Positions 2-35,942 of a DNA stretch of 64,000 bases are shown piece by piece; the stretch's first letter is position 1, and each line of letters begins with the position of its first letter. The notes under the pieces were generated by a model. The model did no database searches. It saw only the letters and a program-made list of their open reading frames with translations, and was not told the origin of the DNA. The stretch is from contig OZ237764.1 of the NCBI GenBank assembly GCA_965178125.1, positions 496,001 to 560,000 of the forward strand, written 5' to 3'. This DNA is from Bilabrum cf. latius. Its lineage: Eukaryota. Made by a program: the position numbers and the translations under genes.

Positions 2-3000
2 CGCGTGCGGCAGTGCAGTGCAGCTTTGGTGCTGGACGCAGCGGGGGACGTGGACGTGTCACGCCTGCAGCGGGGATCGAACCTGGGCGGGACGCAGGGG
101 TCTGAACCTGAACCGCTCCTGTTGGCCCGGTGGGGCGGCGGCGCTGCATTCCTGGTCGCAAGACCCGGAGCCGCAGGATCATCATCCTCATCGTCATCCT
201 CATCGTCATCGCTCGGGAGCTCTGCAGGAGAGAGAGAAGCAATCGATGGGTCGGCGAGCTCCGCCTGGTGCTCCCCTCGACGGGCGGGGGCCTGGGTGTG
301 GTGCAGGGAGGGACGGGCCAGTGTGACGAGTGGCGGACAGCGGGGAAGGCAGGACCAAGGTGAGGGAGCCGGGTCGGGTGGCAGCGGAACCTCGTCGGGC
401 GCCGCGCAATCGATCGGAGGCGGTGGACTTGAATCGGTCGCCCGCGGGCAGGCAGAGCTCGCCGGGTCTGGACCGTCGTGCCCGGTTGCAACCACGTTCC
501 TCATGCCCGAGCACGGCAGCAGCAGGAACACCACCCACGGGAAGGCAGAGAATGCACCCGGAGGCCACCGCGAACGTTCGCCAGGGTTCGCCCAGCGGCA
601 CGTGGTGTGCGTGCTGCGGGGAGGCAGGAGCAGGCAGACCGTGTTCGTGGCAGCCGACGGGGCCGGATACCCGGAGCCGAAAACATCCCAGCAGCCCGTG
701 GTGCTGTCTAGCCCCCTGCCCCTTTGCATGGTATGGGGAGCCGTGGCGATGGAGGCCTGGAGGTGCGGCGAGGCAGGGTTGGCACGGCGCGCGGCGATGC
801 GGGCGGCGGCGCCCTTCCTTCTGGTGGGTCCCCCGCGACCTTCACTCTCCGCAGTAACCGCCGGGGCGCAGCTCGCGCTGTCGGCGGGGCTGGTGCAGCG
901 CACTGCGGCGCAGATCGCCAGCTAGCTGCCCTGGTGGCTGATCGTGCTGTCTGCCACGGCGGAGGGCGGGGCCGCCATCGGCTCCGGGATCGGCGAGGCC
1001 GGCCTGGGTCTACCGGGCGGGGGGACAGCGGGCGCAGCGTGGGAGTCGCAGTCGGGCGCGAGGCATCGCCTGGAGGCGGAAGAGGACGTCAAGACCAAAT
1101 GGAGGTGGGACGCCTGGGACTCTGACCGGGCTGGCTGGGGAACAAGAGGGCCGGCGGTGCACCCGCAGCTGGGGTACCACTCCGGCGCCCTGGCGCAGCC
1201 CATTAATCGCACTCGTCACACCGTCGATCTCACCCGGGCCCAGGGACCCTACGTCGACCCGCCCATCGGCGGGTACCCCGGGCCTGCCCCGGCGGAGAGT
1301 GATGGTCGTCATGGTCAGTCGTCCCCCACGGACCGCAGGCGTGTGGGTCTGCCCGCCCACGCCCCGACGAACCACAGGGGATGGGCCGCCAGCGCGCGCA
1401 GGCTCCATCGGTGGTACACGGGGTCGTGGTCCCATGCCCAGCGGCCTGTGCGAGCAGACGGGGGTCCCGCCTCTGCGGCGGAGGCCTCCCGACTCGCTGG
1501 AATGTCGCCCGCGGCGCGATTCGCCGCCGCCGCCTGTCGGCGGTGCGCCACGGCGGCTGCCGCGCTCGAGGCGGCGGCTCTGGGCCTCGCACCCACCGCT
1601 GGGGAACAAGCCCTCGCCGCGCTGGTCACTGCAGCCACGCCGCTCCTCGCGATCGGGTCCTAGGAGAGTGTGACGAGTGCGCTGCTGCAGCCGTGCCTGC
1701 GGGCGTGGGCGGCGGTGGGCTCCCTGGCCCGGGACACGCTGCAGTTCAGTGCACGCGGGAGGTCGCAGGTGCTGCGCGCTATGGTCGCACGGCTTGGTCT
1801 GCTGGTGGCGCACGCGAGCGCTGGGTAGGGCCTGTCTGGCGCGTCTGGGGGCGGGGCGGGTGCAGCTCTCGCGCGTTGGCAGAGAGAGGTTGCGACCGGC
1901 GGTGCGGGTGCAGGCGTGGGATCGGATCAGCTGCCCCGCGGTGCCTCTGGCCCTGCTGGACTGAGCCTCGTCCGCGGCGGCGATGAGATCGGATCAGCAT
2001 CCCAATCCACCGGTGGATTGCTCGGCCTGCTGCCGCCTGCCATGCAGGTGGTGAGCTGCGCCCCGGCGCCGCGCACCTCCTGGGCGCTGGGCTGGGTGGC
2101 GGGAGAGGGCGGCTTCTCGGCGGGCGACGGGGTCTTTGGGAGGAGGACGGCTGCCGTGGGAGGGAGTGTAGGTCTCCAAGGCGGTGGCGGGCGTCACTCG
2201 AGCGGCGGTTACGCGCTTGGGCAGTCCGAGTCCTGGGCCACTGCGCTGGGGCTCGTGTGGGCCGCGGCCGTCCCCGGCGTGACGAGTGCGGCGACCGGGG
2301 CGGGCGCCGTGTCGCGGTCGGCGTCCTTGAGGGGCTGCGGGGCGCCGCTCCTTCTGGACGCCGCCGGGGAGGGTGTGACGAGTGTGGGCACGCTGACGGA
2401 GGCGGTGAATCTGATGGCGGATCGAACGGGTGTCGTGGAAGATCGGATCAAGCCTGCCTCCGAGGGTCAGGGCGACGGGGACGGCGAGGAGGCGGGTGCA
2501 GTAGCTGGGGGAGGGGGCACCCCTGGTTCCGCTGGGCCCTGGACCTTCGAGTCCGGCGCCGCACAGATGCTGCTGGCGGCTGCGTCGGTTGCCGGCGTGA
2601 CGACTCCCCACGGGGACGTGAGGCGAAGGGAGGGTTGGTCCAAGCTGAGGGAGCTGGCTGCCACCAGCATGCTTGCTGCAGCGGTGCGGCGATGCATAGG
2701 GGTGGGCGGTGCTCCAGATGCATCGCATGCGGGTGTGGAGGTGGCAGCGGGCGGCGCTTCTGCTGGTGCTGCTGGTGCTGCTGGTGCTGGTGCTGCTGGT
2801 GCTGGTGCTGCTGGTGCTGGTGGTGTATGTAGTCCAGGCGAGGCGTGGGGGGCCGTCAGGGCACTCCTGTGGACGGCGACTGGCCTATAGGCGCGGGCTG
2901 CGGAGGCGCTGACGAGTGCAAGGCCGGCCATGGAGGAGGATGCCAAGGGCGGTAAGAAAGGGGGCAAGGGGAAGCCGCCAAAGGGGAAAGACAAGGGGAA

Positions 3001-6000
3001 GGGCAAGAAGGGTGCCAAAGGGGCTGCATCCTCAGAGGGGGATGGCGACGATGCGTCGACTATGGGCACTCATCACATGCGCAAGCTGCCCGCACCCGCC
3101 GACTAGATCGACCTCGGGTCAGCCGCACTGGCCGCATCGAGGTTCATGGCAGCACTCGCGGCGGCGTGTGCCGGCCATGCACCCACGCGCACCTAGGCTC
3201 AGGAGGTGCTTCAGGGCATGGTCAAAGGCGGGGTGCCAGTGATGCCCCCTTCCTCCGTTGATGATGGCGGCGATGGAGAAAGAGAGGGGACGACGGGCGA
3301 GGATGGTGTGACGAGCGGAGCGGGGTCGCTGTCTGCTCACTTGCAGCAGCTCATCGCGCTTGCGACCAGCCTGGGCATGGCCGATGGCTCAAACTCAACG
3401 GACACGCCAGGGTCCATCGGGCTCGTCGTCGCGGTCCGCGAGGCCGCCCAGTCCGCAGCCAAGACCGCCACATCGCCAGAGACATCCGATGCCCTCGGAC
3501 CGGCAGTTGGCGCATTCTTGGCTCTATCGGCCGAGATTGACCTGCTGCTCGCGGCTCCCTCCAGCGGAATGGGGGGAATATCGGCTCCGAATGGGCCCGG
3601 TGCGAGGGAAGGAGGCGTGAGCGGCAGTGCCAGCCCCCGCGCGGATTCAGGCTCCGGGTCTGTTCCCCAGATCAGCGCGCTGCCGCTGGAATAGGCCGGG
3701 CTCGCTGGCACAGGCGTATCGCACGGTGGTGGGCGCGGGCCCGGTGCGGGTCCCCGCAGTGCGCTGCACCTGGTGCTGGCCCTGGAGGCGCAGTCAGAGC
3801 CCGATTATCGGGTGGGTGCTTCGAGCGACCTCGCGCTTCAATCCAGGGAACAATTCGGGGGAGTTTCCCTGGACCCCCTGGGGGTGGGGGGTGCCCCCGA
3901 TGTGGGGTCTCTGTCTGACGCGGTGCTCGACGAGGAGGAAGAGGCCGGCATGGCAGACCTCCGCGATGCTCTAGAGCCAGCGGAGGAGCAGCCTGGAGGT
4001 GCACTGCACGACGGTGTGCGGTGGCCCCAGGTCATGGCGGCGTGCGGGCCCGGGCGGATCGGTCACGAGCAGAGGCAGGTGCTGCTGGCCATGGCCGGGA
4101 CTGCGCTCGCCTGCACCGAGCTGGCTGCCGACCGGGCCTGCCAGCTTGCCGCGCCTTGGAGGCACACGTGGCACCGCAATGCCGTGCAGCTGGGAACACC
4201 GGAACACCCAGGTGACCTGGAGGCGGCCTCGCTCCTCCGGCTCGCCCCCGACCGCCCCTCCGAAGCACTCGTCATACGGCCCGCGGCCGGTACATCTGCG
4301 GCACTGTAGTCTGCTAACCATGTCGGCTTGGCAGGATCGATCCCCCCTTAGGGCGATGGGGAGGGCAAGGAGACTGAATAGGAGACGGCGGAGGGGGGGA
4401 ACAAGCAAGGAGATTCGTAGGACCGTGCAGGCGGGGCCGACCAGCCCCACCGTGCACTCGTCATCAAGGAGGCACGCAGGGCCAGGATCAGCACAGCGAT
4501 GGCGTGCAAGACAGCGCTGCGCGCAGCATCGTGCGCTGCAGTCAGAGCGTGTGCCGCTGCAGCCCCCGACACAGCCGTTGCCGCGCTCGAGTCGGCCTCG
4601 AGGGCCGTGGCGGCTGCCTGGCTCTCGCCCACGGACTTTGTGCAAACATCCCAGCCCACTGGTACCGGCTAGGACGGATCCGGATCCGATCCACCGATGG
4701 ATTGGCGGCCGGTGTGGCATCTTGGTGTCGTTGCGGCTCGGCTGCTGGCGGAATCCAACCGCGCCGTGTCTGCATCGCACGGTTGTGCGGAGCTGGGCGG
4801 GGCACCCAGGACGGAGACCGGTGCCACGGCCAGGGAGGGCGCGGGCCGCGTGTTCGGTGATGCCACTGCGGCTGTGCGTGAGGACCGTGCGGTGGGCGGG
4901 CACGGTGCCGGATTCTCGTCCTCTGGCGATCTGTCTGGTCTGCTTGGTGGTGTCGGCGTCGGCGATGTCGGTGAGCGAGGTGAGCTGGAGGAGGTGGAGG
5001 AGGACGAAGGGCTGGGGGACGGTGTCCAGGAAGACGACGCGCTTGAAGACGACCTGCTGGGCCCCGGCTGGGAGGACGGGGGGGAGGAGGCGAGTGCGAG
5101 GCTGGCCAGTGTGACGAGTGCGGAGGCGGTCGAGCGCGCGGTGGGCGACTCCAGGGGAGGGGGCATGGAGGCGGGGGCGCGGGCGTGGGAGGACGGGGGC
5201 ACCCCGGGCGACGGCTCCGTGGGGGTGCCCCCCTTCGGTTTGTTCCCCGGGTCCGGAGCCGGGGGCGGCCCTGCGGTGCGGCTGTCGGCTCAGTAGGCTC
5301 GCGCCTGCGGTGAGATGGCGCAGTTTGCTGCCGCGGCGCTGTCGGCGGCGGGCGCGCACAGGCACGCTGCGACTTTGGCCACCTTTTTGCTGTCGTCCTC
5401 GCCCTCTGCCTCGCTGGGCAGCGGGGCGTGGGGTCCGATGCCCGGCGGCGGTCCCTGGTCTGGAGCCGGCGCTCGTTCACCCGGGGATGGCGCGCTCGGG
5501 GCCGGACTCAAGCAGGCCTCCAGCGCGGTTGCAACCGCAGGAGGGGCGGACAAAGACGCCGCGCGGAACAGTCGGCTGGGCCCCACCCGCGCCCGCGATG
5601 CCGCCTCGCTGCACCGAGCAGCCGAGGAGGAGGCCAAGCTGGCCCAGGGAGCTCTCGCCCAGCGGGGCGCTTCGGCCGCCGCGAGGTCGGCTGTGGAGTC
5701 GCTTGCGGTTGCGCTGGTGCACGGGCGTGGGTCCGCGGAATTGCTCGCTCAGAGGGCGGAGAGGCGGCTCGCCGCTCGATTCAGGGCACTGCAGGAAGCG
5801 GTGCAAGAGTACAACCAGCGGCCCAGCGTGATGGAGAGGAGGCGGAGAGCGAGGGCCTCGATGCGTGCGGGGGGCAGGCCGGCGGGCATGGAGGCCAAGG
5901 AGGAGGTGGAGTGGAGGTTCCGCAGGAGATGGCTTGCGCGGCGCGTGGTGCGTGCCCGCGTGCTGGCACGGTCCGCGAGGTGGCGGGCCTCTGTGCTTTA

Positions 6001-9000
6001 GGCGGGCCTGCGGGCATCCAGCGGGGAGGGGGGTCCGGTGCCGGCGAGGGCAGCTGCTGCCAGGGGGCTGGGCCTGGCTTGGAGCCTGTGGAACGGTGGA
6101 GCCGCGAGGGATGTGACGAGGAGGCCGGGCGCAGGCACCCTCGGATCGGCAGGTGCTGATCTGTGGGGGCGTGCCGCCTGGGAGCTGGGGGAAGCGGCCC
6201 TTGAAGAGGAACACAAGGGGGCTAGGCTCCTGCTCGGTGACACAGGACACTCTTCTCTGTCGGCTCAGCTGCTGCCAGGGGGAGGGAAGGCAAAGGCCGT
6301 GGCAGGCCGCGGATCCACCGGTGGATTCGGTGCGATGGTGGACGGCGGGGGGGCGGGCTTGGATCAGGGGGCTGGGTCTGGCACAGCTGCCGTGAAACGC
6401 ATGCGGGCTGCGGCCGGTGCGGCAGTGCGATGGGGCGGGGGTGCTGGGGAACAAGAGCAAGGGCAGGCGGCTCTGGCGCTGGCGCTGCTGCCGAAAGGCC
6501 GTCTGGGTCGGCTGGCCGCAGCAGATCGCGCCGCGCTGGAGGAGGAGGAGAACGACATGGCCCTTGTTCCCTACAGTGGCGGCGGTGACGGGGAGTTGCC
6601 TGACGGTCTGGAGCTCACCCGGACAGCAGGGGCCGATAGAATGCGCGGCAGTGCGGTGCAGGCGGGCCCACCGCAGCTGTGGCGCGCCTTGCAGGCGCAC
6701 AAGCTCTGCATCGCCGCGCTGCGGGAGCAGAGGTCCCTGCCGCTGCTGGTGCGGACCGCTGCCGGTGCGGCTGTGCTGGCGCTGTCGAGGGGGGGCCTAA
6801 GGGGTGCGGACTGGGCGCGGTTTTTCTGGGCCGAGGCGTTCGAGGGCGGCATGGCGGCGGGTGGAGTGGCCGAGGGCGGGGACGCCCTGTGGCGGGGACT
6901 CAGAGGACTGGCGCAATCGGGTGACGCGTTCGTTGGGGCCGCGGCGGCGGCGGAGGAGGAGGAGGACGATCCCAGGGAGGATGCCAGGGGGGGGCTTAAA
7001 GTGGCGGCGAGGGGGCGTGGGGGGGTGGAGGACGGTGCCATGCAGCAGTCCAACGGTGTGACGAGTGCGGCTGCGGCGGCGAGGCCGGGGCACTTGGACC
7101 GTCGAGGACTGGCACTGCCTGGCGCGCTGGCGGCCGCTGGGGCGCGGCTGCGGGAGGCGCTGGGCCCCGCGGGTGCGCTTGCCTGTGCCGGTGCTGCCGC
7201 CGCCCTGGCTTCCATGGGCGCCTCCTCCTCGGAGCGGGAAGGGCTGGACCCGGAGTCGCTCGAAAGCGAACGTTCGCTCGAGGACAGCGAACCCGCGGAC
7301 TGCTTCCTGCCAGAGGCACCCAGGGCGGGTCCATCGGGTGAGGGGGGGAGGAGGGGCCTGCGACTTGCCGCCATGCAGCTGCTGGCGGCTGCCGCTGGGG
7401 CGGAGGACGCGGGTCCCTGCCCGGACCCGGTTGCGACCTTCCTGTTCCCGGCGCTGGCCCACCTCGGAGTCCACGTGCCTGGCGGCCTGCCAGGGACATC
7501 CGGGCCGCTGGCACTGTTTGGGGCGGTGGGGGCGGACCCGATCGCGGAGTCGGAGGACCTTGTTCCCTCGAGCACCCTCTGGCCCGCCCTGCGAGCCGCT
7601 GCAGTGCAGTGCATCGGGGAGGGCCCCGTGTCCTGCGCAAGGGCCGCCCCCGGGGCCGGTGCTCTCCTCGTGGCTGCCGCACGGAGCCGGTGCCCATGGC
7701 GGGTGGCCGACGCACTCGTCACATCGGCCGACTGCGCACGGACTCTGGGCAGCGTGTCCGGCGCCATCGCAGCGCTGCAGGCCGTGTGCGAAGGAAAAGG
7801 CGCATCTTTGGCAAGCGATGCCTTCGGCGGGTCAGCGGCTGTGGCCTTCCCGCCGCACGGTGTGACGAGTGCGATGCTAGCGTACGACGACAGCCGTTCC
7901 CCGCTGCTGCCTGCAAACCGCATGGCACTGGCTCGGATCGCGGCTCTTGGGCGAGCGCTTGAGGCACAGTGCATTGCGGCGTTCGGCGGGAGTGCGGCAG
8001 GGACTGGCAGTGGCGGTGCTTCCGCTGGGGCAGCTGGTGCTGCTGGTGCCGGAGAGGGCGATGATGCCGATGTGAATGAATCGGGGACTAAGGACGAAGG
8101 TTCCGGTTTTGAGCGCTGGGATGCTGCTGGTGCGCTGGCAGCCGAGGCTGTGAGGTGGCGGTGGTGCGATGGGGGGGTGCAGGCGGGGGAGGGCTAGGAG
8201 GGGGGGGAGGGGGAGGAGGAGGATGCCAAGGGCGGTAAGAAAGGGGGCAAGGGGAAGCAGCCAAAGGGGAAAGACAAGGGCAAGGGCAAGGGCAAGAAGG
8301 GTGCGAAAGGGGGTGCATCCTCAGAGGGCGGTGGCGATGCTGCCAGCGGCAGACGCCCCGATGACAGCACACCCGGCGGGTGGGCCGCAAACCGGTTGCA
8401 ACCGAATACCGCCATCCTCCTCGGCCCCGAACTGTGCGCCCGCTGGATGAGTTCCCTGGGTCAGCTACTGCTCGCCGCCTGCAGGGCCTGCAACTTCGGA
8501 GGGTGTGACGAGGGCTTGGACGCGTGGGTGTGGGGAGCAGCAGAGGGGCCAAGGGCAAGGGCCAGAGCCTCGGATGGGTCCTCGAACTCAACGGATCTAT
8601 CAGCACCGTCGTCGCATGCGGGAAATGAGAAGGACACAGTGAACGATCATGGCGATGCATCGCGGCCGGATTCTCCCGCGTCCTCTTCCTCCTCAGCCCC
8701 CTGCCAGTGGTTCGAGTGGAGGAGGCAGCTGGCCGACGGCGCGTGCAGGGCGGCCGTGGCGGCGACCCGGATCTGCGCCGCTTGCAAGGATCCGAAATCG
8801 AATATGTGGGGGTCGGGCACCGCCAGCCAGGAGGCCACCGGGCTGTGCCTCGTGCACGCGTGCCTGCTGGCCAGCGAGGTGCATCGCACGATGGCGCGCT
8901 TCGCCGCCGCGGCTGCCTGGGCCGCCAGGGCACAGGCGGAACTCGACGAGGCCGACTCTAGCCCCCGGGAGTTCAGCGGGGTGGCACATGTTCCGCAGCG

Positions 9001-12000
9001 CGCGGCGCCGCTGTACCAGCACCCGCTGCTCGCGCACTTCCTGTCGCCGCCGCGGCCGCGGGCACCCGCCGGCTCAGGTGCATCGCACGATGGTGCCGCA
9101 GACAGCGGCAGGAACGACGACGCACCCACGGACAAGTCGGTTGCAACCTCCCTGCTCGCCGGCATGCGACCTTAGTGGGTGCTTGTTCCCTGGAGGGGTC
9201 CCCAGCTGCGTATCGCGTGCGCCGAATCCAGCGCACTAGCGGCCGTGCAGGCCGGCTCGCTAGAGACTGCGTCACGAGCGGTCGATGCCGGGCTGCGAGC
9301 GGCGCGGCTGTCCGGGCTGCCGTCTGGGGGTAGGAGGCTTCTGCTGCTGCGGGCAGAGGTGTCTGCCAGGCAGGGATCTGGGTGTGACGAGTGCTACGCG
9401 GCGCTCGCGGCGGCGGGGGCGCAGGGGCAGGTGGACGGCAGCACGGATCCCTCGGTGCTCGCGTCTGCGTGCGCCGCCGTTTCCGGCTCCGAGTCGTTGG
9501 GCGCGCGCCTGCCGCCGCTGCCCGTGGCTTCGTCCTCCTCCGCGGGCGACTCTGAGGAGGAGGACGACGCGGGTGCAGTGCACGCAGGCGCTGCCCCCGC
9601 GGGGCAGCAGCATCAGCGCCCGTCCTCCCGGACGATCGCGAGGCAGGCAGCCGAGGAAGCCATCCTCAGGAGGCTGGCGTGCATCAGGCGGGGCGAGGCG
9701 GCCGCACGGGCGGGCTTGTGCGAGGTGTTTGGGGCCTCCGCGGTGGGAGCGGTAGAGGGCTGGGGCGGCCCGCTGGCACCGGCCCTGGAGCTGCCGGGGA
9801 ACACCGACGAGGCCGGGCGGGCGGTGCACTCGTCACACCTGCCGTCGGGTGCGGGGATGGTGGATCCGGAGCCGCCGCTGGATGACGAGCATCCGATGGG
9901 CTGGCAGCCCAGGCCGCTGGGTAGCGTCCGTGTCGCTGCCGGCGCACTGTCCGGCTCCTGCGCGGGCCCGGTGGGCGTGCTGGCTCAGTCCGCCGCGTGC
10001 AGGTGCAGGTTGCTTCTCTCTCTCGCGGCCGAAAGCGAAGACGGTGCTGCCGAACAGGCCGCTCTGGCTATCCGGAATCAGAATGAGGCCGTGGACGTGG
10101 CGGAGGCAAGGGCGAGGGCAGCTTCCAGGGGGGAAGGGCAAGCACTCCTGCCCGGGGAGGAACCGCCCGCGATCGTGCCAGACCCGGTGCTGGCTGCCAG
10201 GGCACAGGCCGCGGTACGGGCGAGGGATCGTCACACCAAGCGGGCGACTGAACTGCTGCAGGCCGCGGAGGGCGCCGCGCATCGCGCCGTGCGGTGGTTC
10301 CGCTGCGCGGGCGAGTGCGGCGGTGCCAGCCCCGCGGTTGCAACCGCCCTCTTGCTGCTGGGAACGACCCGGAGCCGGAGGATCCGGCTGGCGATGGGCT
10401 TGGCCAGGCAGAAGCAACAAGCCACCAAGGGCACCTCACTCGTCACACCGGTCCCCCACCCCGGGTCCGACCCCCTGCCGGCATGGCGCGCGTGCGTGGC
10501 CGTGTGCTCCAGGGCCGGGCCTGGGGCCCTTCCCGCGTGGAGGGCCGCCCTAGGTGAGGCATCGGCGCATCTGTGCCTCCGATCGGTTTCGGCTCCGGGT
10601 CCCGAGGCCGGCAAGCGGCTCCGGGTTGGGGCGGCCTGCGCCATTGCCGCCGCCTCGGCCGTTTCGCGCGCGTGCCGCCGCTGGTTTGGACCCGCTTCCG
10701 GGGGCAGGGAGGACTTGGCATCCGTGGGCACGGGCGAGCTTGGGGACAGCACTCAAGGGATCGGGCATGCGGCCAATCCCGGAGAGGAAGGTGGCCAAAC
10801 CGGCGGGTCCTGGATGCGGGACGGATCCAGCGCCCCTGCTCTGCCCGAGTCAGCACTGGCCGCCGCGGACATGATCCGATCATGGGCGCGGGAGGCCGGT
10901 GTCCGGGCCGAGTACTCGGGAGCCGGAGCCAAAGCCACGGCCATCGCCGCGGAGGCGACGGAGAAAGCTGCTCTGGAAGCCAGGAGGGATCCGGTGGCGG
11001 TGGGGGGGGGCGGTGGGCAGCACGGTGGTGTGACGAGTGATACGGACGGTGCTTTGTCTCCTGCTTGGCCTCCATCGGTTGGTGTTCTCCAGCTTGCGGC
11101 GCAGTGGAGGCGGCTGGTGCACCAGACCGGCGGTGGGCTGACTGCCTCGGCGGAGGGCTGCCTGAGCACAGGCACCGAGAGCGCGGCCATTTTGGCGGCG
11201 TCTGGCGCTAGCACCGCTCAGACTGGGGGTACTTCCGACGGGGATGTCGCGGGTGCGGCTGTCTGGAACGGCGTTGGGTTGCAGGGGTTCGGTGCAGTGC
11301 TCAACGGCTCTATGAGGGCCCAGCCGGCCCTGGTATCGAGTGATTCTGGTGATGGTGCGGCGGGTGCAGCAAGCGGTGACGGTGCCGGCGATTCGGCAAG
11401 TGAAACAGGCTCGGATGCGGGCAGCGAGCAGCTGGCGGGAATCGTGCGGTGGCACAAGGCTGCGCTCTGGTCGCTCCGTGCCAACGCTGCTGACGTCACC
11501 AGCACGAGTGACGTCAGTGCCGGGGTCCCCCCCGAGAACGCAATCATGGTGGTGTGGCGGGAGGCGTCGCTGGCGGGCGAGACGCGAAGGTTCGTGAAGC
11601 TGGGGCAGGACCCGAACGGCAAGCCCGTGGGGAGGTGGGAGACGGCCCGCCCTATGGTGCTTGCGGCCACCCGCCTGCGCCCAATCTTCACACCGGGGGA
11701 CTCGACACACCCGGGGGCCGGCGATGCAAGCACTCGTCACACCAGTCGCTCGTCGTCGCCCAGGAGCGCGAGAAGCGGCATGTCCGCAAGCAAGGCCAAG
11801 GCCAAGGCCAAGGGCAAGGGGAAGGGGAAGGCCAAGAAACTGAATTCTCCACGCGGCAAGGGCAAGGGCAAGGGCGACGAGCGCGACGAGCCGGCCAAAC
11901 CGGAAGTACCCATGGAGCTGGTGTGTGAGTGCGGCCCGGCGGTTCTGCCTCAGTCCGCCGTGCAGCAAGCGCGAGAACTGGCGGCGGCTGCCGGGCAGGA

Positions 12001-12574
12001 GGCCGCGGCGGATGCATCGCACGGTAGCGCGGTGAGGCTGCTGGGGCTGGGCGGGAGCGATGCACACGATGGAACTGCTTCAGGAGAGGTATAGGAGAGT
12101 GATGGTCGTTCGGTTGGCCCTGTGACGAGCGCGCTGCTGGAGCCGAGGACTCAGTCCGCTGTGTCGTCCGTGCGCGGGCCGCTGGGCCGGGTGCTGTGTG
12201 CCGTGGGTGCGCAGGGCGGCAGCGGTGTGACGAGCGTGCTGGCTGCTCTAGCAGCATCCTCCGGACCGAAGACGGAGAGTGTCGTCGGAGATGACGGTGT
12301 GACGAGTGCGGCCAGCCGGCAAGGCAGCGCCCCAGCAGCCCTCGCGATGCGGGAGATAGCCTTGTTCTTCAGCGGGCCGGGGGCGAGGACCGGCGGGGCG
12401 CACGTGATTGGGGCGGGAGATATCAGCGATGGGGCTGGTGCAGGCGGGCAGGAAGAGGAGGGGAAGACCAGTGGCAGTGCACCCGAAGCGGAGGGTAGTG
12501 TCGTGAACAGCAGTCAATCAATGGCGGAGGCGCAGCAGCTGGCTGCAGGCGTGCTACTGTCGGGGTCAGGCTGA
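2..12574 (+). CDS. Giant Ala/Gly-rich hypothetical protein, 5'-partial, >4,190 aa when TAG is read as sense
   Basis: ORF-track segments 5..925, 944..1663, 1916..2890, 3206..3694, 3773..4309, 4697..5296, 5315..6001, 6038..8197, 8396..9175, 9179..12094 and 12122..12574 all share one frame. They are separated only by TAG (17 in-frame TAGs: 923, 1661, 1826, 2888, 3104, 3194, 3692, 4307, 4349, 4379, 4418, 4670, 5294, 5999, 8195, 9173, 12092). The first non-TAG stop is TGA 12572-12574, followed by AT-rich intergenic DNA. Helical Ala/Leu blocks alternate with low-complexity linkers and K/G-rich patches. No family confidently recognised. Confidence 0.8.
2760..2822 (+). repeat. Coding (GCT/GGT)n microsatellite encoding AGAAGAAG
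   Basis: Directly visible tgctggtgctgctggtgct... tract. Confidence 0.9.
2934..8340 (+). repeat. Dispersed intragenic duplication (~120 bp, copies at ~2934-3054 and ~8216-8340) encoding EEDAKGGKKGGKGKxPKGKDKGKGKKGAKGxASSEG
   Basis: Near-identical nucleotide strings GAGGAGGATGCCAAGGGCGGTAAGAAAGGGGGCAAGGGGAAGC...GCATCCTCAGAGGG at both sites. Confidence 0.9.
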
Positions 12575-12813
12575 CCAGGAAGGTTTATAACTCGAGTTGG
12601 CGTGGTATAGTTCATTTGTAGCGCACGAAATAGGCTCATGTAGCCTCTCAACAATCAAAACCGGAATCCGTTTTGCGGCAAAATCATGATTTCGTGTCGC
12701 GTGAGCCCAATGTCAATGTGCTCAGAGTTAACCTTTAATATCGCTCAACAGCATCACCCACTTATAAGATTCAAATTATCTATCGATTGGGCTGACCAGC
12801 GCGTGTGTTGAAT

Positions 12814-15800
12814 ATGGCTTGGCGCTCTATCACCATGGTGCTTGCCACAGAACTGTTGAGTACTGCAGCTCAAGACATCGTGGTATAGCGAAAGGTATGA
12901 TGTTTTATGCCGTTATATGCCATATTTTATATTGAATGCAGTGTATGTTGTCCAAAGACCATCATATGGATGCTTGCCTTCGCAGATGAGCGCCGGAGAT
13001 GCTCACGCATGCGTTGTCTCCTCAGCTCTATCGGGAATTGACCGGATTGTCTGCTGGGGTGATGGGTCGGATTTGAAGACACTTAGCTAGTCTGGATCAT
13101 ACGCTGACGTGAGGGCGCCAGGAAACTGCATTCATTCACAAGGTCGTGAATACACTCGAACGCATGATGTCTATTGTGTAGCCGCTCGCCAGATTCTACT
13201 TTTCTTTCAGGTATCTTGCGGACGGGATTTTTGTTGTGCTGTATCCACAAGTGGTGCTCTAGACTGCTGGGGTAAGTCGGACATTCGCCCGCCTGGGGGT
13301 ACGACAGCCGATGATGTTGACCTCGGCCAAGACCGGCCTGGGGAATATTCGACAGTATCATGCGGCCAGAGTCATGGATGTGCGATAGAGAAGAATACAG
13401 GTAACTCAGTTTGCTGGGGACTACTAGAGGATCGTGCATAGGCCAATACGACGGGTAATTTCGTGCAGGTGAGCCATCGCAACATGCCATTCGAGGTCAA
13501 TTGAGTATAGTGCCGCTGGGGCCCGCCGCAACAGGACATCGCCTGTAGTACGCTTCAGATTACCGCACGAATGATACGCATGTGCCACATACCACTCGTG
13601 TATCGCAGGTGGCTGCTGGCCCCGAGTACACCCTCCTACTTGACGCCGACACGGGCGATTTGGATGCATCCGTGGGCCCCCAGGACTGGCTGGTACCACC
13701 GTACAAGGTGCATGCGGTGAGAAGGCGTTCGAGTCGCTGTGATTATCCTGCGCCCTGCTGCATTAAAGGGGATGGTGCATGCCGCCCAGCTGTTCTTTGG
13801 GTATGGTCCGCGATGCCTTGCTTGCTTGCGCAACCCGCCACACAATATATTATTTTTTACTATTCTCTACTTCCCAGGTAAGCGCATCCCATGCCGTGGC
13901 ATGCGGCATCGAACAGGGCACTCTGGATATCAGGTGCTGGGGAAACACGTCCGACCATCACCCGGCGCACATCGACGGCGACTTCTTCGACGTGAGATGC
14001 AGTGCAGTGCAGTGCAGTACAATGCAGTGCAAAACAATGCAGCCTAGCTAACCCCAATGGATTCTGAACCGACCAACTACAGTCAATGGTCGTGCTCGAC
14101 TGGACGCCTCCTCTGTTTGCCTCCTGCTGCCTACGCACCACAGCTCGATGCCAGCGGGAGCACCCACCTCTGTGCCCTCGAGGTTGCAACCGGCAACGCT
14201 CGGTGCTGGGGCACTGCCGCCGGCAAGGCAGTCCCGGAGCGGATCTACGGCAAGTACACCGAAGTTGCCTCCGGTCTTGATTTCTTCTGTCTCCTGGATG
14301 ACACGCCGGACCAGCTCATCGGCTGCTTCGGTGACGGCAGCGATCCCGCTGTGACCCCCGACACCCTGCACACCAACTTTGGCGCCTACAGCCTCGACGA
14401 TGCACTCGTCACACCCACGCCAGGTCCCGTGCAGATCAATCCGATCCCCGGCTCCGGATCCGCCCTGGGTGACGCATCGGGGCCCTCCTTCCTCGCAGGG
14501 CTGGTCGCAATACCCACCGACTCCGAGCAGGACGAGGACGAGCACATGCTGCTGGTGTCAAGCAGCCTCGGCGCAGAAGTCAGGAGGGTGACCCACGACA
14601 AGGAGCAGCACGCCCCCGACGGAGTGCTCCGGAATATCAGATCAGCTCCCAAAGTGCTCGCTACTTCCCCGTCCATCGGGCAGGGCAGCTGCTTTGCCCC
14701 AGTGGGCGACGTAGACGGAGACGGCGCATCCATCGAGGTGCTGGTGGGGGAGCAGGACAAGGGCTTGGACACCGGCGGTATCCGGATCGATTCCATCCGG
14801 GTGACGTCATAGGGCGCCTATGAGCAGATTGACTCGACGGATCTGCGACCAACCGGGCTAACGGAGTGGCCAGAGTCGTTCGGCGCATCGTGCGCCCACC
14901 TGGGTCCGGCGGGGGGCATGAACGCCCCGGTGGTGGCCGCGGTGGGTGCCCCGCAGGAGGATTTCTTCAACGGTAACGTGTACATCGTCAGCCTGCAGGT
15001 ACCTCACGCGGGTGTGACGAGTGTTTCAGGCAGTGTGACGAGTGCGAACGTCCTCGGCTGGATCGAGGATCCTGAGGGTGCCTCTGGCAGCATGTTCGGG
15101 GCCGCGGTGGTAAACCTTGGCTTGGTTCAAACCACGAGTGCGGGAGCTGCCGTGAGCATGCAGCCGGATGCTGCCGTTGAGGTGGAGCTGGCAGTTGGTG
15201 CGCCTCTCTGGGCCGATGAGGATGACCTGGGTGATACCAGCACAGCTGGCGGGCTGTACGTGCTGCGGGCCCACCTGCCCACCGCTGTACTGGGTGCTCC
15301 TTCGAAGCTTACGGTGTCCAGCTACGTGGCCATCTCGCCTTACAGGCAGCCGTCGGCGTTCAGCGCGCTACGAGGCTCGCAATTCTCGTCGGCCGAACTC
15401 GGCGCGTCGATCGCTTTGGTTGGATTCCAAGATGCCGCCCAGCAGACGGTGCTGCTGGTGGGTGCACCCAATGCTAACTTCGGGCAAGGTGCCGTCTTTG
15501 AGGTGGGAATCTCGTCTGATCATACCGCGGTTGCAATGAGACAGGTCATCGCAGGACCCACCGGTGCTCGGTTCAACGGGAGCACCTCGTTTCCGTTGGA
15601 CTGCCAGTTCGGCGCTTCCCTGCACACGGTCGCGTCAACCTCGCTGAGTCTGGGGGAACAATCCATGGCGGCAGTGGCGGGGTTCCGAGGCAGCGATGAA
15701 GAGACTCTGCAATGCCCTGCAGGCACGGCCGATCGCCTGTGGTTCTGGACCGTAAACTCAACGGATCTATCCTCCACGGCGGGCTGGGCCGACGGCGCTG

Positions 15801-18800
15801 CTGCGGAGCCAGATCCGAGGGACTGCATGACGACCGGCACTCGTCACACCTGTCACAACGCACTCATCACATCATCCGGCATGACGAACACGATCGCCGT
15901 CACGTCGGGCGCTGTTGCTTCGTGCCACGCTGCCTCGGAATTCCGGTCTGGCACTCTGCACCCCGACTCGCTGGTGTACTCTGTGGCGCGTGCGGGATGC
16001 GAGACAACGGGGGCGGGCATCGCGGACGTTGGCGGCGGCGGGTCAAATCCCGGCGCAGCCACGCGTGAGCACGGTGGCATCGCTTGGGTGGGACCTGCAC
16101 TGCCTTGCAGCGCAGCGGTAGCGCCCGGAGCGCGCGGTCAGGACGTGCTGCCCGAGGCGGGGTCGGAGCCGAGCTCCTGCGAGGCGGCAGCTGGCTCCGG
16201 GTCCTCGTCTGCCGGTGCCATCCGCGTGGTGCTGCGGAGGCAGTCGAGCACCGAGCACAGCAAGTGGAGCTCGGGAGCTCCAAGGCCGTCTGAGCTGCAC
16301 CGGGTGCAGGAAAAGGCGCGGGTGTGGGTGGGCGGCCTCCGCTGCCCCGTGGTGTCCTTCCAAAGTGGTGCCACGGAGGACCACATCACCTGCATCCCGT
16401 CCACATTATTGGCTCCGGGTCTCGCCCATGTGTCCGTTCAGTTGTCCTACGGGTACTTTAGCGGCAGCGACGCGAGCTAGACGTCGGCGGTAGCTGCGGC
16501 AGCCAGCGTGGGGCAAGGCATCCCACCATGCGAGGCGGCGCTTAGGAGCCTCGCCGGCGAGACGCTGGCTCCACCGGTGGACGCAGCCATACCATGCGTG
16601 GCGATTGGATTCGCGGGTCCCATGCAGCTGTCGCTTTCCGTGACGGCTGCAGCTGGGGATCGATTCACTCGCGTGCTGCCGTCTGGCCCCGGGCTGCAGC
16701 TGTACGGGCAGCTGGTCCAAGAAGAAGAGGAGCTAGCTGCCGCGGCCTCCTCTTCACCTGATCCGGAGGGCGCCATTCCAGGGAATGATGACCTGCCGTG
16801 GGCTGCGGGCGAGTCACTCGTCACACGGGAGCTGCGGTCCCAGCGCCAGATGTTGGGGCTGTCCATCGGGTATGGGGTTGCTGGCACGATCAGCATGCCC
16901 GATGGGATGGGGAGTGCGGTGGCCGAAAACCGTGCGGCGGGTGGTCCGTACAGCATGTACGCCGAGCTGCCCGGACTCGGGGGCCGGATCGCAGCTCGCG
17001 TGTACGCCACCACGGACGGCAATGCAACCGTGCAGTGGGTGTCGTATCCGGAGCCGGATCTGCAGGTGGCCATCCCCAGCCTGGTTGAGCTACCTGAGAT
17101 GCTATTGGGCCTGGATGACCCTTCCCTTGTGAAGCACTTTTCGTTCGAAGGCAACCACTTCGGGCCGTCTGGTTTGGTCACCACTATCCCAGACGCGCTG
17201 CCGCTGCCCTCTGTCACCGTGGGTGATGCTCCCTGCGGCAACCTCACCATCGTATCGCACACCAGGCTAACGTGCAGCTCCCGTCCCAACCTGGTTCGAA
17301 GCGGCGACGTCGTCCTGTCGATGCCAGTGGGCCGAGTGCCCGATTGGGAGGCAGTAGGGTGGGAGCTTGTTCTCCAGGACTGGAATGTGACGAGTGCGGC
17401 GGCGGCGCAGGCAGCGATGATCAGCGCGCTGGAGTGGCAGTACGGCGATGAGGCGGGGGAGGGCAAGCCCCTGCAGGTGACAGCCGCTCTCATAGACGCC
17501 TTTGAGCCCGTGGTGGTTGCCAGCCAGCCCCGGGTGATCAGCCCCACGGGCGGGGAGCAGGTGCAGATGCTCGGGATCGATATAGGCACCCGGATGTCGG
17601 ACTACCTGGTCGGTGTGACGATTGACGGGATCAACTGTACCGGTGTGACGAGAGAGTCGGACCTTTCCATCCTATGCGTCGCAGGGGGTGGGTCGGGCGG
17701 ACCGGGCTCTGTGGCTCTTGAGACCGTGTTCGGGTGGACTAGCCAGGGTCCGGATGCGGTGGTGCTGTACTCGCCTCCTGTCGTCACATCACTCGTCACA
17801 TCCCCCACGGCGGTGTTCAACGCACGGGATGTCGAGTACAACGTGACGGTGACGGGGCGGCACTTTGGAGTGCCCGTGGTGGGCCAGGCATCGGAGGGAA
17901 GCGAGGCCGTGGTGGGCGCGAGCATGGGTGGCGTGGCCTGCCCGCGCGTTGTGGTGGAGAGCGACACCCAGCTGCAGTGCATTGGGGTGCAGCCGCCCTG
18001 GACCACGGGCAACTTCGATGCTGTGGTCACTCTGGGCACCAACACCGGCAATGGAGCAGGCCTGTTCCAATACCAGCCGCCTGTTGTAGTCTCTGCAGCA
18101 AGCCCACCGACCGTGGTTGCCGGCGAGGTTCTCACGATCACGGGGGCCGGGCTGGGCAGCCAGGCCACCATCGAGTCTGTCACCGTGGGCCCCTACCCAT
18201 GCCTCCTTGTGGCAGTGTCAGCGGCTGGCGACGCGATCCAGTGCAGGGCAATGGGCGTCGGCTCCGGCCACAAGGTGTCGGTCACTGTGCAGCAGAATGG
18301 ATTCAATGATCCAGCGACGGCCCCAACGGTCGCATTTGCCGCGCCGTCCATAGCAAAGGCAAGCATTGTTCAGACTAGCTTGTCCTCTATTTCGTCGACT
18401 AGATCCTCAGCATCGGCGGGTGATGCAGGACTGCCCAGGCCGTTCCTGTTCATCGACGAGTCCAGTGCAGTGGTTTCTCTGGAAATAGCCAACGCGGGGT
18501 GGGACCTAAGCCAGTGGGACCCTGCGCACACACCCAGCGGTGCACTCGTCACACTTGACACGGGGAGTGCCAAGATCCCGTGCACGGGGCTTGTTCGAAC
18601 GGACAGCCGGCCTGCGCTTGCATTGGGCGCGCTTCCCGCCCAGAACAATTCCATCGTTCGGGTCAACTGCACCGTGGACTGGGCTGCTGCCAACCCGTCC
18701 ATCGGAGCGACAGAGCCGGGCGTGACGATTCCAGCCACAGTGCAACTGTCGGTGGGCGGGCAGGCAGGTACCGGGTCCCTGGCCCAAGCGGACATCGAGA

Positions 18801-21800
18801 CTGTTCAATCGTCACAGCAGGTGCCCCAGGGGGGCGGTCTCGTCCTCGTCGGGCGGCCCTCCGTTTTGCTGGCATTGCCCAACTCGTTTCCCACGTCTGG
18901 TTCTGCAGCCGCTGCCGTGTCAAATGCGGCTCGGCTCGCCCAGCTCAGGTCGAATGTCACGGCAACCCCCCTGCAGCAGCTGCGGGCACTGGCTGACCTG
19001 GCGGCCCAGGAAAACGCACAAGCACGAAGCGAAACGTCTCGGCTGTTAGAAGCTACCGTGGGTCTCGATAGGCAGTTGCAGACAGCAACCACCAGCAACA
19101 CCAGCAGCGTGTTGTCCGACTCAGACCCGCAGGTGCAGGCTGCCGCTCCCACGCTGTTGGCGGAGTCCTTCGATGCCGGCCTGCTCGTCATACAGGGGTC
19201 GAATTTCGGCTCCGGACCATGGGCGGTCAAGGCTGTCAAGCTGGGCGAGGTGGTGAGCAGGGTCGTGGTGTGGGTGTCACCGGGTGAGCTGCTCGCCTAC
19301 TGCGAGCCGGGAGTGGGCAGCGGCGTGGTGACGTCGGTGGAGACGTTCGGTGGGGTGTCGATTTCTGCGGGGACGAACGACGTTCGTGCGATTGCGGGCG
19401 CTTCCATCACGTATGACCGTCCATTGGTGGATTTTGTGACTCCTGCATCCGCCATCGTGGGTCCATTGCTTGTCGAATCATTCCGCCTCACCGGCCAGCA
19501 CTTTGGGTTCAAGCAGACCGACATCGAGAGCGTGAGCGTGGGAGGTCAGCCGTGCGACAGCTTTGCGTGGATATCGCCCAGCCAGATCAACTGCTTCAAC
19601 GCGTCGGGCGCCAGCTGGCCTGGAGGCAGGAACGTGGAGGTGACGGTGGCGGGGCAGACCAGCCGGTCCAACCGCGCCTTCGAGCCCTTGGGGGAGCCAC
19701 TCGTCACAGGGGTGTCGCCGTCCAGCGGCATCGCCGGGTCGAGGATTTTGGTCTCCGGTGAGAACTTCGGTGACTTCAGCGGTGATGTGACGAGTGTGCA
19801 GCTGGGCTCAGCCGAGTGCCTAAGCGTCACCCATATCAGCCGAACAGCGGTAGAGTGCGTCGTTCCCGACCTAGCCGGCGCCACGCAGGACGCGGAACTT
19901 GCGGTTACCGTCACCACCCGAGCCGGTGTGACGAGTGCGGAAACGATCGACACTCCCACCTTCCAGTTCGCCCAGGGCATCGACCCGCCCGCTCACGTGC
20001 CCGAGGGCCTCCTGGCGTGGCGGGATGCAGCCGACGCCATCGTCGTCCGGTGGGCGTACCCGGACCCCGTCTCGGTCGCGACTCAGTCTACGACGCAGAC
20101 AGGAGCGGCAGCGGAGGAGCTCGACGGTTTCTAGGTAGAGGTGGCGGTGGCGGAGTCGGACGCGGCTCCTGCCTCGGTCTCTTCAAACAGCACGTCGCTT
20201 TTCGTCGCTGGGATGACCGACCTTGTTTCCATCCAGACCGGGAGTATCAGCAACCTGACCATGTACCAGTTCACCATCCCGTCGACTTCCATCAAGCCGG
20301 TGCACCTACGTGTCGCTGCGAGAAACTAGGGCGGTGTTGGCTCGTCCTCCGCTTGGACCCCACCAGTCCACCAATGGTGCGGCGACAACCAGTACCTGTC
20401 TACTCAGTTGGGCACGATCGATTGGGCATGCAGGCCTTGCGATCCCCAGGTGGCCGTGTGCGATGGCGGGTCTAGCTTTGGCGTGGCCTCTCAGCCCGGC
20501 TTCTTCCGGCTGCCTTGGACCCCCGGCAGGCTGGGCTTCGTGGAGTGCCCGAGGCCCGAATCCTGCCTTAGCACCCAGACCGGGACAGGGTTACGGGCGC
20601 TCGTCATGCGGCTTGCAGGCGGTGTCGTGCAGGCGCCATCCCGCGGCACCGGCGGTCCTACGCTGGAGCAGGTGTATGGGCTCCAGCCCGCGCCTGCCTT
20701 CCTGGGAGAGCGAAGGAGCAGCCTCATCCGTAAGCTGGTGGCGCTCGGGGTAGTGCCTCCTGACTACGAAGATGAAGATCTAGAGGTACCCGAAGAGCTG
20801 TCGGATCTTGCCGAAGAGCCGTTCAGCCGACAGCTCAGGGTGTACTCTGGCCTGACTGCCGATCAGCTTGTGCAGCAAGGCATGCCTAGGTGGGTAGGAG
20901 AGACGTGTGCAGAGGGCTACGAGGGCCTGCTGTGCAAGCGGTGCTCGGCTGGATACACGCCGTTTGGGGCGCATGTGTGCAGGAAGTGTAGGACGGGAGG
21001 GCTCGTGATTGCCTATGCCGCTGCGATGATCCTCATCGTGATCGTTGCTACCATCTTCATCGGTTTGAACGCGCTCAAGAACGGCGGTCAGCAGCTGGCA
21101 AAGCTGACGATTGAGGCCCAGTACGAGCAGGACGTCGCCCGCATGGAAGTGTTCGGTGATTTATTCGGGGCAGGGGCCAAGGAGTTCCGTGCCAGGGAGT
21201 AGAAACACGATGACATGGCTGCGGTGCTCCACAGGCGAGCGGCGGCAGGCGGCTCGATGGGCCAGGGCCTGCCTCCGGAGTGGAGGGAGCAGCTCAAGGA
21301 GATCCTAAAGGTGAGGGAGAGCGAGGTGGACAAGCTGTCCAAGAAGAAATCGCTCGTCACCGCCATCAAGATCCTCTTCTCCCACATCCAGGTAGTGTCC
21401 ATCGCCAACTCATTCGACCTGCGCTGGCCGACTGCAGTCGTCAGGATGTTCGAGTCCATGGAGATCGCATCGAGCGCCGCTTCGGAGGTATTTAGCGTGA
21501 ACTGCCTGCTAACCGAGTCGGTGGACGACGAAGCGTACGCCCAGCTGATCGAACCGTACGACGGTAACGCCACGGCCGACTTGGTACCGTACGACCGCGG
21601 TGCCCAGGACTGGGTTGGCATGCGGGCCGCGGACGTGTCGAACCATTCGTAGCTGCTCACCAGGCACGAAGCCGCCATGCTTGACCCTGCCGCCACTGTA
21701 GGTGCGGGCCGGTACATGCCCCTAGGCTCGACCTACTTCCTGCGCACTCTGCTGGTGCAGCTCAGCCCGTTCTTCCTTGCGCTTGCGCTGGCCTTATTCT

Positions 21801-35639: not shown

Positions 35640-35765
35640 GATATCGGTGGGAACATGTTTCTGGACTAACATGTAGCAACATGTTCACCTGCACAACAGC
35701 AAACAGCAATCCATACAGGCATCAACATATACTCGTCACACCCGCAAATTCAAACGTAGCGCTCG

Positions 35766-35910: not shown

Positions 35911-35942
<32 letters not shown>

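Follow-up and report, generated by a model that had tools for sequence, protein, structure and literature searches.

A Hyper-Iterated Asymmetric DNA Word and Three Palindromic Companions in a Protist Nuclear Genome with TAG as a Sense Codon

INTRODUCTION

The cyanobacterial word HIP1 (GCGATCGC, Highly Iterated Palindrome 1) has defied explanation over three decades; among hyper-iterated bacterial words, Chi and the uptake sequences are the solved cases. Here, we describe a word with the core GTGACGAG/CTCGTCAC that is iterated in 64,000 nucleotides of Bilabrum cf. latius DNA (assembly GCA_965178125.1, contig OZ237764.1, positions 496,001 to 560,000 of the forward strand), a stretch referred to below as the window. 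The nuclear genome of this protist, which reads TAG as sense, has at least four hyper-iterated DNA words, and this one is the most frequent. A text search of open-access papers and preprints found neither a comparable word in eukaryotic coding DNA nor any of the four strings as a genomic motif; the main word and its reverse complement appeared in the literature only as parts of oligonucleotides among the matches listed.

The DNA uptake sequence (DUS) of Neisseria and the uptake signal sequence (USS) of the Pasteurellaceae have a non-palindromic core of 9 to 12 nucleotides with a weaker extended consensus, lie in either orientation thousands of times above chance, are tolerated in coding frames that give acceptable peptides, and spread by substitution and fixation bias, the source of which is preferential DNA uptake in natural transformation. 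The main word resembles them in its asymmetric core and extended consensus, its two orientations, and its huge over-representation. However, the host here is a eukaryote and not a competent bacterium, and the inverted pairs in which DUS is frequent at terminators were not seen here. To our knowledge, preferential uptake in natural transformation has no eukaryotic counterpart. Chi and KOPS are over-represented asymmetric words of the 8-mer class that are read by a DNA-processing machine and skewed by replication direction, whereas the orientation of the word here follows the G-rich coding strand (25 sense and 16 antisense copies). The 12-bp MEX motif of the rex sites on the Caenorhabditis elegans X chromosome, which is read by a DNA-binding complex, is likewise asymmetric, similar in length, and concentrated in certain regions of chromosomes, but motifs of this type occur at much lower density and do not stand in coding sequence at about 1.5 per kb.

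HIP1 is described in an excerpt of PMC5861425 as 15- to 300-fold over-represented, with sites that are conserved between genomes and were judged to be kept by selection, and an excerpt of PMC4390886 links HIP-like words to orphan methyltransferases. The likeness to HIP1 consists in a short fixed word in tens- to hundreds-fold excess that lies inside open reading frames (ORFs) in several frames and possibly, to judge from the encoded tripeptides, in sites kept between related genomes; three of the four words here are also palindromes of a similar kind. The differences are the eukaryotic nuclear host, the greater length (11 to 14 nucleotides) and lack of palindromy of the main word, and its very uneven spread among genes with little abundance between ORFs. 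Full membership in the HIP1 or uptake-sequence class fails on three counts: the main word is not palindromic, it is not abundant between ORFs, and its host is a eukaryote. The analogy to HIP1 and DUS, first drawn in a sequence-only reading of this DNA, is apt and is strengthened by the three palindromic words.

RESULTS

A 14-nucleotide consensus with 44 core copies

The core occurs in 44 exact copies in the window (23 on the plus strand and 21 on the minus strand), whereas 100 dinucleotide shuffles of the window gave a mean of 2.70 (standard deviation, 1.76; maximum, 7) and 44 was reached in 0 of 100. This excess lies above the at least 15-fold over composition-aware nulls that marks HIP1-type words (44 versus 2.7). 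The sequence-only reading had counted at least 43 copies against 2 to 3 expected and had placed 33 in two giant genes. Our counts agree, with 33 of the 44 within positions 1-21360, and 21 of the 21 coordinates that it had listed were recovered in our copy table. The two genes are as follows.

2..12574, plus strand: giant ORF 1, at least 4190 codons, 5' end open, stop TGA; 20 cores and 14 exact 11-mers
13721..24169, plus strand: giant ORF 2, 3482 codons, stop TAA, IPT/TIG domains and a C-terminal membrane part; 13 cores

The full unit, (G)GTGTGACGAGTGC, together with its overlapping neighbors tops the 8-, 10-, and 12-mer rankings of the window in an unbiased k-mer count. A position matrix of the 44 copies carries information from -3 to +10 and none further out, with the consensus G G T GTGACGAG T G C, which is identical in both orientations; the flanks beyond it are unrelated between copies. 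The 11-mer TGTGACGAGTG has 29 exact copies in the window. The 14-mer with 0, 1, and 2 mismatches has 10, 16, and 18 copies, against 0, 0.05, and 0.9 under a local Markov null. Mismatches fall mainly at the outer positions of the 14-mer, the core is seldom mutated, and one-off core variants are few. At four core copies (6113, 21353, 34336, and 39699) the flanks are absent, and this number is about that predicted by chance. All copies are given below, with the coordinates of the 8-nucleotide core, its strand, the encoded peptide, and the mismatches to the 14-mer.

323..330, plus: copy, sense S-V-T-S-G; 2 mismatches
1212..1219, minus: copy, antisense R-T-R-H-T; 0 mismatches
1670..1677, plus: copy, sense S-V-T-S-A; 1 mismatch
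2279..2286, plus: copy, sense G-V-T-S-A; 1 mismatch
2375..2382, plus: copy, sense G-V-T-S-V; 1 mismatch
3308..3315, plus: copy, sense G-V-T-S-G; 2 mismatches
5111..5118, plus: copy, sense S-V-T-S-A; 1 mismatch
6113..6120, plus: core without flanks, chance-like; 4 mismatches
7058..7065, plus: copy, sense G-V-T-S-A; 0 mismatches
7715..7722, minus: copy, antisense A-L-V-T-S; 1 mismatch
7862..7869, plus: copy, sense G-V-T-S-A; 0 mismatches
8505..8512, plus: copy, sense G-C-D-E-G; 1 mismatch
9384..9391, plus: copy, sense G-C-D-E-C; 0 mismatches
9829..9836, minus: copy, antisense V-H-S-S-H; 0 mismatches
10439..10446, minus: copy, antisense S-L-V-T-P; 1 mismatch
11030..11037, plus: copy, sense G-V-T-S-D; 1 mismatch
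11733..11740, minus: copy, antisense S-T-R-H-T; 0 mismatches
12122..12129, plus: copy, sense P-V-T-S-A; 3 mismatches
12227..12234, plus: copy, sense G-V-T-S-V; 2 mismatches
12299..12306, plus: copy, sense G-V-T-S-A; 0 mismatches
14405..14412, minus: copy, antisense A-L-V-T-P; 0 mismatches
15014..15021, plus: copy, sense G-V-T-S-V; 1 mismatch; tripeptide retained in relative P0289
15035..15042, plus: copy, sense S-V-T-S-A; 1 mismatch; retained in P0289
15840..15847, minus: copy, antisense G-T-R-H-T; 0 mismatches; retained in P0289
15863..15870, minus: degenerate copy, core GTGAtGAG, A-L-I-T-S; A-L-V-T-S in P0289
16817..16824, minus: copy, antisense S-L-V-T-R; 2 mismatches
17387..17394, plus: copy, sense N-V-T-S-A; 2 mismatches; retained in relative P0256
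17645..17652, plus: copy, sense G-V-T-R-E; 2 mismatches; retained in relative P0254
17792..17799, minus: copy, antisense S-L-V-T-S; 2 mismatches; retained in P0254
18545..18552, minus: copy, antisense A-L-V-T-L; 1 mismatch
19700..19707, minus: copy, antisense P-L-V-T-G; 3 mismatches; ungapped on PLVTG of Sec5 IPT
19787..19794, plus: copy, sense D-V-T-S-V; ungapped in IPT domain; retained in relative P0264
19928..19935, plus: copy, sense G-V-T-S-A; 0 mismatches; ungapped in IPT; retained in P0264
21353..21360, minus: core without flanks, chance-like; 4 mismatches
32326..32333, minus: copy in Rio2 ORF tail, sense G-V-T-S-I; 2 mismatches
32434..32441, minus: copy in Rio2 ORF tail, sense D-V-T-S-A; 1 mismatch
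33069..33076, plus: partial copy in Rio2 ORF, antisense; 3 mismatches
34336..34343, plus: core only, chance-like, no ORF; 6 mismatches
35732..35739, minus: copy outside ORF, just 3' of pirin ORF, on the gene's strand; 2 mismatches
35762..35769, minus: copy at pirin ORF end, 30 bp from the 35732 copy; 2 mismatches
39699..39706, minus: core only, chance-like, in UBA3 ORF; 6 mismatches
44675..44682, minus: copy in sortilin-like ORF, antisense; 2 mismatches
45629..45636, minus: copy in sortilin-like ORF, antisense; 1 mismatch
59916..59923, minus: copy in ORF 59543-61246 (minus), sense G-V-T-S-G; 1 mismatch
60003..60010, minus: copy in ORF 59543-61246 (minus), sense G-V-T-S-D; 1 mismatch

Contigs from four public sequencing runs are identical to the window, one of them covering 14144-21400 without a gap, and the stretch is present in nine public runs of four studies, none of which is listed as RNA. 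An assembly or adapter artifact was rejected, as the copies are in frame, are found in contigs of four studies, and occur again in an unrelated metagenome.

The excess lies in the DNA and not in the peptide

Three null models were applied to coding blocks of 14,508 nucleotides, in which 23 cores and 20 exact 11-mers were observed. Synonymous-codon shuffling gave 2.15 cores (maximum, 6) and 0.15 11-mers, and codon shuffling gave 0.62 and 0.007. The most generous null was a dicodon model, a first-order codon Markov chain that learns from the word itself, with 6.6 cores (maximum, 14) and 0.45 11-mers (maximum, 3). The sequence-only reading had named the vanishing of the excess under a dicodon-preserving null as an outcome that would count against it; in the coding blocks the excess stays (23 versus 6.6 and 20 versus 0.45). 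In these blocks, 16 V-T-S tripeptides stand against an expectation of 1.65. The spelling GTGACGAGT accounts for 9 of them, even though no serine codon is rarer there than AGT (31 of 441). Likewise, L-V-T occurs 8 times, compared with 1.5 expected, and is spelled CTCGTCACA in 7. This fixed spelling with rare codons indicates that the DNA drives the peptide and not the reverse.

Forty-one of the 44 cores lie in ORFs. Their frame classes compare as follows with codon shuffles within each ORF.

V-T-S, sense: 23 versus 0.61
L-V-T, antisense: 9 versus 0.26
T-R-H, antisense: 4 versus 0.07
S-S-H, antisense: 3 versus 0.215
C-D-E, sense: 2 versus 0.75, barely enriched
sense frame reading TGA: 0 versus 0.011

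Enrichment is thus 14- to 57-fold in four of the five open frame/strand classes. The claim that the word occurs in both orientations and several frames holds for both strands and five peptides, but the classes are not uniform, the TGA frame being closed and the C-D-E frame barely enriched. Such unevenness is expected if coding constraint filters a DNA-level bias, and the raw skew to a single frame mirrors the tolerance of the proteins. Together with the codon-aware nulls and the codon spelling, the several frames support the earlier claim of a constraint or drive at the DNA level. Off-frame TGA "ambush" stops were dropped as a candidate, since they cannot account for the antisense copies or for the 14-nucleotide consensus.

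It could be proposed that the repeated element is the peptide G-V-T-S-A, for example a modification or cleavage site, with the same codons arising by chance or recent duplication, a view suggested by the V-T-S encoded by 23 of the 25 sense copies. However, five different peptides are encoded, the codon choice is fixed on rare codons, the synonymous shuffle contradicts such a motif (2.15 versus 23), the flanks are unrelated, copies also stand outside ORFs, and C-D-E-C is the commonest frame in the metagenome loci described below. We regard a protein motif as the least probable of the explanations considered.

An element acting in RNA, either the site of an RNA-binding protein or a pairing module within or between long mRNAs, accounts for some of the same observations. 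Transcribed sequence contains nearly all copies: 41 of the 44 are within ORFs, and two more lie on the strand of the pirin gene, at the end of its ORF or shortly beyond it. Sense copies outnumber antisense copies (25 versus 16) despite one closed sense frame, and the palindromes and mixed orientations in the giant ORFs would permit duplexes of 10 to 14 bp. On the other hand, the 16 antisense copies share the extended consensus, whereas a single-stranded reader would see one orientation, and the pairs in the Rio2 ORF, in ORF 59543-61246, and in the pirin tail are all of the same sense, with no partner in the transcript. Local folding around 29 copies equals that at 150 control sites (-37.5 versus -36.5 kcal/mol, with 0.62 versus 0.61 of the 11-mer paired), and the window holds no match to an Rfam family. 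An RNA-level element is thus unlikely.

Copies arise by substitution

The IPT/TIG region of giant ORF 2 aligns with the Sec5 IPT domain (1uad_C) without gaps across three of three copies (19700, minus; 19787, plus; 19928, plus), and the copy at 19700 falls on PLVTG, which is identical in Sec5. This alignment indicates that the copies, wherever a check is possible, are existing codons rewritten by substitution and not insertions, scars, or mini-introns. In a HMMER search of 1.84 billion representative proteins, giant ORF 2 had fragments of a close relative (P0254, P0256, P0264, and P0289; 84 to 94% identity) and more distant relatives at about 53 to 58% identity. In the aligned relatives, word sites differ by substitution, with no indels. 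The tripeptide encoded by the word is retained at 8 of 8 covered sites in the close relative, a comparison at the peptide level only, against a background identity of about 88%, and weakly significant (about 0.05); at about 53 to 58% identity, it is retained at 1 of 7. The degenerate copy at 15863 is a case of turnover, by either a CpG-type loss in the window or a gain in P0289. A metagenome search with the giant ORF 2 protein gave 310 pattern-matched stretches, none of which was confirmed, and a word-index protein search with it gave one weak match.

Short insertions left by transposon excision or programmed DNA elimination, that is, scars or ends of a mobile or eliminated element, would explain the fixed length, the two orientations, and the flanks that have nothing in common. 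This explanation is very improbable, considering that the three copies in the domain with solved homologues stand at ordinary ungapped positions, that the sites in aligned relatives show substitutions and not indels, and that the flanks carry no target-site duplications. No transposase or reverse-transcriptase domain turned up in the window ORFs scanned for domains. Mini-introns of 8 to 10 nucleotides, suggested by a core that starts with GT and ends with AG, were ruled out, as the frame and the IPT alignment run through the copies.

Patchy distribution and three palindromic words

Giant ORF 1 has 1.11 exact 11-mers per kb, compared with 0.09 per kb for the remainder of the window. Giant ORF 2 has 12 of its 13 cores and 11 exact 11-mers (about 1.7 per kb) in its first 6.4 kb. 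Composition predicts similar chance rates of the 11-mer everywhere (<0.01). The sequence-only reading had described the word as a feature of long exons. This does not hold, as copies are missing both from the last 4 kb of giant ORF 2 and from a 4.4-kb ORF, and the density follows ORF G+C. The reading was correct that the word also occurs outside coding sequence at 35732, to which the copy at 35762 can be added, and that it is missing from the lectin genes, with no copies in the two B-lectin ORFs. Beyond the giant ORFs, copies occur as same-strand pairs 30 to 108 bp apart (32326/32434, 35732/35762, and 59916/60003). Within 1-21.4 kb, the spacing is at most slightly more even than random (coefficient of variation, 0.74 versus 0.96; P = 0.055); eight spacings of 570 to 710 bp there form a post hoc cluster and were not relied on.

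Three further words, all perfect palindromes with unrelated flanks, are 30- to 170-fold above the codon-shuffle mean in the window ORFs.

484..493, with further starts at 5527, 8394, 9139, 10336, 14182, 23851, and 35138: second word, palindrome GGTTGCAACC; 8 versus 0.047 in codon shuffles
571..580, with further starts at 7267, 34986, and 45183: third word, palindrome CGAACGTTCG; 4 versus 0.03, with a fifth core copy at 45457
2006..2017, with further starts at 6314, 16570, 46134, and 52836: fourth word, palindrome TCCACCGGTGGA; its CCACCGGTGG 5 versus 0.157

The string CCACCGGTGG usually lies within TCCACCGGTGGA, and two of its five copies (46134 and 52836) are in duplicated sortilin-like sequence. 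In unrelated control loci, each palindrome has 0 to 2 copies per Mb. Most palindrome copies are found in the GC-rich ORFs that also carry the main word, and the joint density of the four words correlates with ORF G+C (Spearman 0.68, P = 0.0035, n = 16), the correlation with third-position G+C being not significant. Resemblances to restriction sites (CACCGGTG is an SgrAI site), to the hammerhead core, to C/D boxes, and to the T-box half-site GGTGTGA were set aside as mere look-alikes.

Recurrence in an independent metagenome

An 18-letter version of the word was scanned in 241 million metagenome records, and 94 stretches were obtained, 5 of them from one metagenome (L138, L152, L178, L205, and L209). 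These five have no nucleotide similarity to the window and encode eukaryotic proteins (GT41, GOST_TM, protein kinase, and RNase HII). They hold 5 further copies of the 11-mer in 23.6 kb, and L138 has one extended copy of the TCCACCGGTGGA class. The controls (272 loci, about 2 Mb in total) gave 0 copies in 503 kb for the other 89 metagenome loci, 0 in 471 kb for 63 prokaryote loci, and 1 in 1.04 Mb for 120 viral loci. The 18-mer itself gave 63 single matches in prokaryote genomes and 3 in viral contigs, which were used as controls, and the 14-mer gave single chance matches only in viral contigs, among the matches listed. In the five loci, the word is read as G-V-T-S-A, C-D-E-C, H-S-S-H, and A-L-V-T. 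With TAG read through, their longest ORFs have 939, 1130, 1096, 798, and 613 codons, whereas reading through TGA as a control gives 423 to 678, and the ORF of 1130 codons contains 25 TAG codons and no TAA or TGA. The recurrence in five TAG-sense eukaryotic contigs indicates that the word is the signature of a lineage and not of this locus.

The host and its genetic code

The window is eukaryotic and encodes Rio2, pirin, UBA3 (NEDD8-activating enzyme), G-alpha, two sortilin/BNR, two B-lectin, thioredoxin-domain, MIF4G plus WW, and ankyrin proteins. Their best homologues are all eukaryotic, and the close ones are environmental fragments only; the best named relatives are stramenopile sequences for G-alpha (45 to 55% identity) and an amoebozoan transcript for Rio2 (60%). 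For the G-alpha gene (41286-42329, minus), Logan, ENA, and JGI contigs contain environmental relatives with protein identities of 99, 86, 85, and 82%, and the next matches fall to about 55%. This indicates that several public environmental data sets contain the lineage.

This nuclear genome reads TAG as sense and terminates at TGA and TAA. The in-frame stops of the plus frame 2-12571 are TAG in 17 of 17 cases, with no TAA or TGA before the terminal TGA, and the other two frames of the giant ORF 1 stretch have 90 TGA, 8 TAA, and 21 TAG. The giant ORFs are continuous because TAG is read as sense, and their frame is confirmed by third-position G+C. In the window, TAG is sense in 2-12574, 13721-24169, 38829-40223, 35766-37064, 50230-52137, and 53688-55586, and the 13 ORFs examined stop at TGA (10) or TAA (3). 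The meaning of TAG is most likely Gln, to judge from aligned residues. In B-lectin paralogues aligned by eye, TAG stands opposite Q at five sites, of which three are the Q in motifs of the QxDxNxVxY type, and opposite V and T at one site each; two TAGs of the window face Q and E in P0289. Leu is kept as a possible meaning because distant homologues show L (UBA3) and F/I (pirin) at TAG sites. An excerpt of PMC5304391 gives Leu in a rhizarian and Gln in Iotanema as the known TAG-only reassignments. The 64-kb window holds no tRNA genes.

Other features of the window are as follows. The 1472-codon ORF 24411-28829 (minus) contains 19 TAG codons and no copy of any iterated word, and within it, at 26116-26175, lies a perfect tandem array, (TAGGTC) x10, read as ten Thr-TAG dipeptides. 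A local duplication comprises two sortilin/BNR-like pieces (44118-46544 versus 52539-53243), with identical flanks around the palindrome at 46134/52836, and the two B-lectin paralogues (50230-52137 versus 53688-55586), with many differences, including TAG/CAG-type changes. A 153-bp unit is in tandem at 43130-43475 (2.0 to 2.2 copies, 90 to 99% matches), where there is no recognized gene. The Lys/Gly-rich low-complexity segments of giant ORF 1 (about 2990, 8260-8300, and 11790-11860) have very high contig depth and many false joints in public runs, and this pile-up indicates that the same simple repeat stands at many other places in the DNA of the organism. CpG observed/expected is 0.83 to 0.91; CpG is thus not depleted, and there is no sign of heavy CpG methylation.

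DISCUSSION

The main word is a DNA-level, lineage-specific word that is propagated by substitution and very unevenly spread. Which copies survive is decided by coding constraint: the TGA frame and the conserved proteins have none, and the Cys-Asp-Glu frame has few. We suggest that the four words form a HIP1-like family, each recognized by a sequence-specific DNA-acting protein, with copies that are fixed with bias and filtered by coding constraint, and we assign this reading a probability of about 0.5. Each word would be the recognition sequence of a putative protein that acts on double-stranded DNA by binding, modifying, or nicking it. New copies would reach fixation above chance through a bias strongest in G+C-rich regions, being fixed by selection or by biased repair, and would then be filtered by coding constraint.

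Several observations weigh against this interpretation. HIP1-type words are abundant both within and between ORFs, whereas the exact 11-mer is nearly absent outside ORFs, with no copy in 15.5 kb of non-ORF DNA. It is also missing from 18.7 kb of other ORFs, from the 3' 4 kb of giant ORF 2, and from the 4.4-kb ORF. Such patchiness despite similar chance rates is not what a uniform genome-wide drive or a general chromosomal role predicts. The four words might share the same ORFs simply because low-complexity protein tolerates them, and the main word, unlike HIP1, is not a palindrome. The statistics are based on 64 kb of window and 23.6 kb of metagenome loci, the retention in relatives is of the weak significance given above, and recognition by a protein is purely inferred.

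A function-free molecular drive might produce much of the same picture. Sequence-specific mismatch repair or gene conversion, in the style of very-short-patch repair, would turn near-matches into the word wherever heteroduplex DNA arises, and the words would accumulate in recombination-active G+C-rich regions. This would fit with copies that arise by substitution, with the few one-off core variants, and with the co-accumulation of four unrelated words at a density that tracks ORF G+C, as if both followed a local conversion rate. The sharp regional contrast, present even inside giant ORF 2, suits hot and cold regions better than a function of each gene. However, we know of no sequence-specific conversion bias of this length in eukaryotes, and no copy stands in the 1.1 kb that separate the two giant ORFs, though only 1 to 2 are expected at about 1.5 per kb. 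In addition, the comparable cyanobacterial word was judged, in an excerpt of PMC5861425, to be kept by selection and not by biased repair. We consider such a drive possible but rather doubtful.

As to the source of the bias within the HIP1-like reading, the patchiness, the co-accumulation of unrelated words, and the link to G+C lean towards a regional conversion process, whereas function is favored by the intact cores, by tripeptide retention in the close relative, and by the precedent of HIP1. Selection for a chromosome-level role of the site arrays is tentatively placed slightly ahead of function-free biased repair or gene conversion. Equally tentative is the more specific proposal of a eukaryotic HIP1/DUS-like system, in which a small set of words of 10 to 14 bases, one asymmetric and three palindromic, would be introduced into the gene bodies of a TAG-sense lineage by sequence-specific machinery for DNA modification, repair, or recombination.

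The word provides an inexpensive marker by which metagenome contigs of this lineage can be recruited, and the five contigs recruited here share the rare TAG-sense code. A eukaryotic case is also a fresh system for the old question of whether such words are kept by selection or by biased repair, with densities that differ sharply between regions and a relative at 84 to 94% protein identity available for comparison. The words point to a putative, so far undiscovered sequence-specific DNA-acting protein. If the proposed system is real, the words would mark or shape chromosome regions, or would reveal a sequence-specific conversion drive of a kind not described in eukaryotes.

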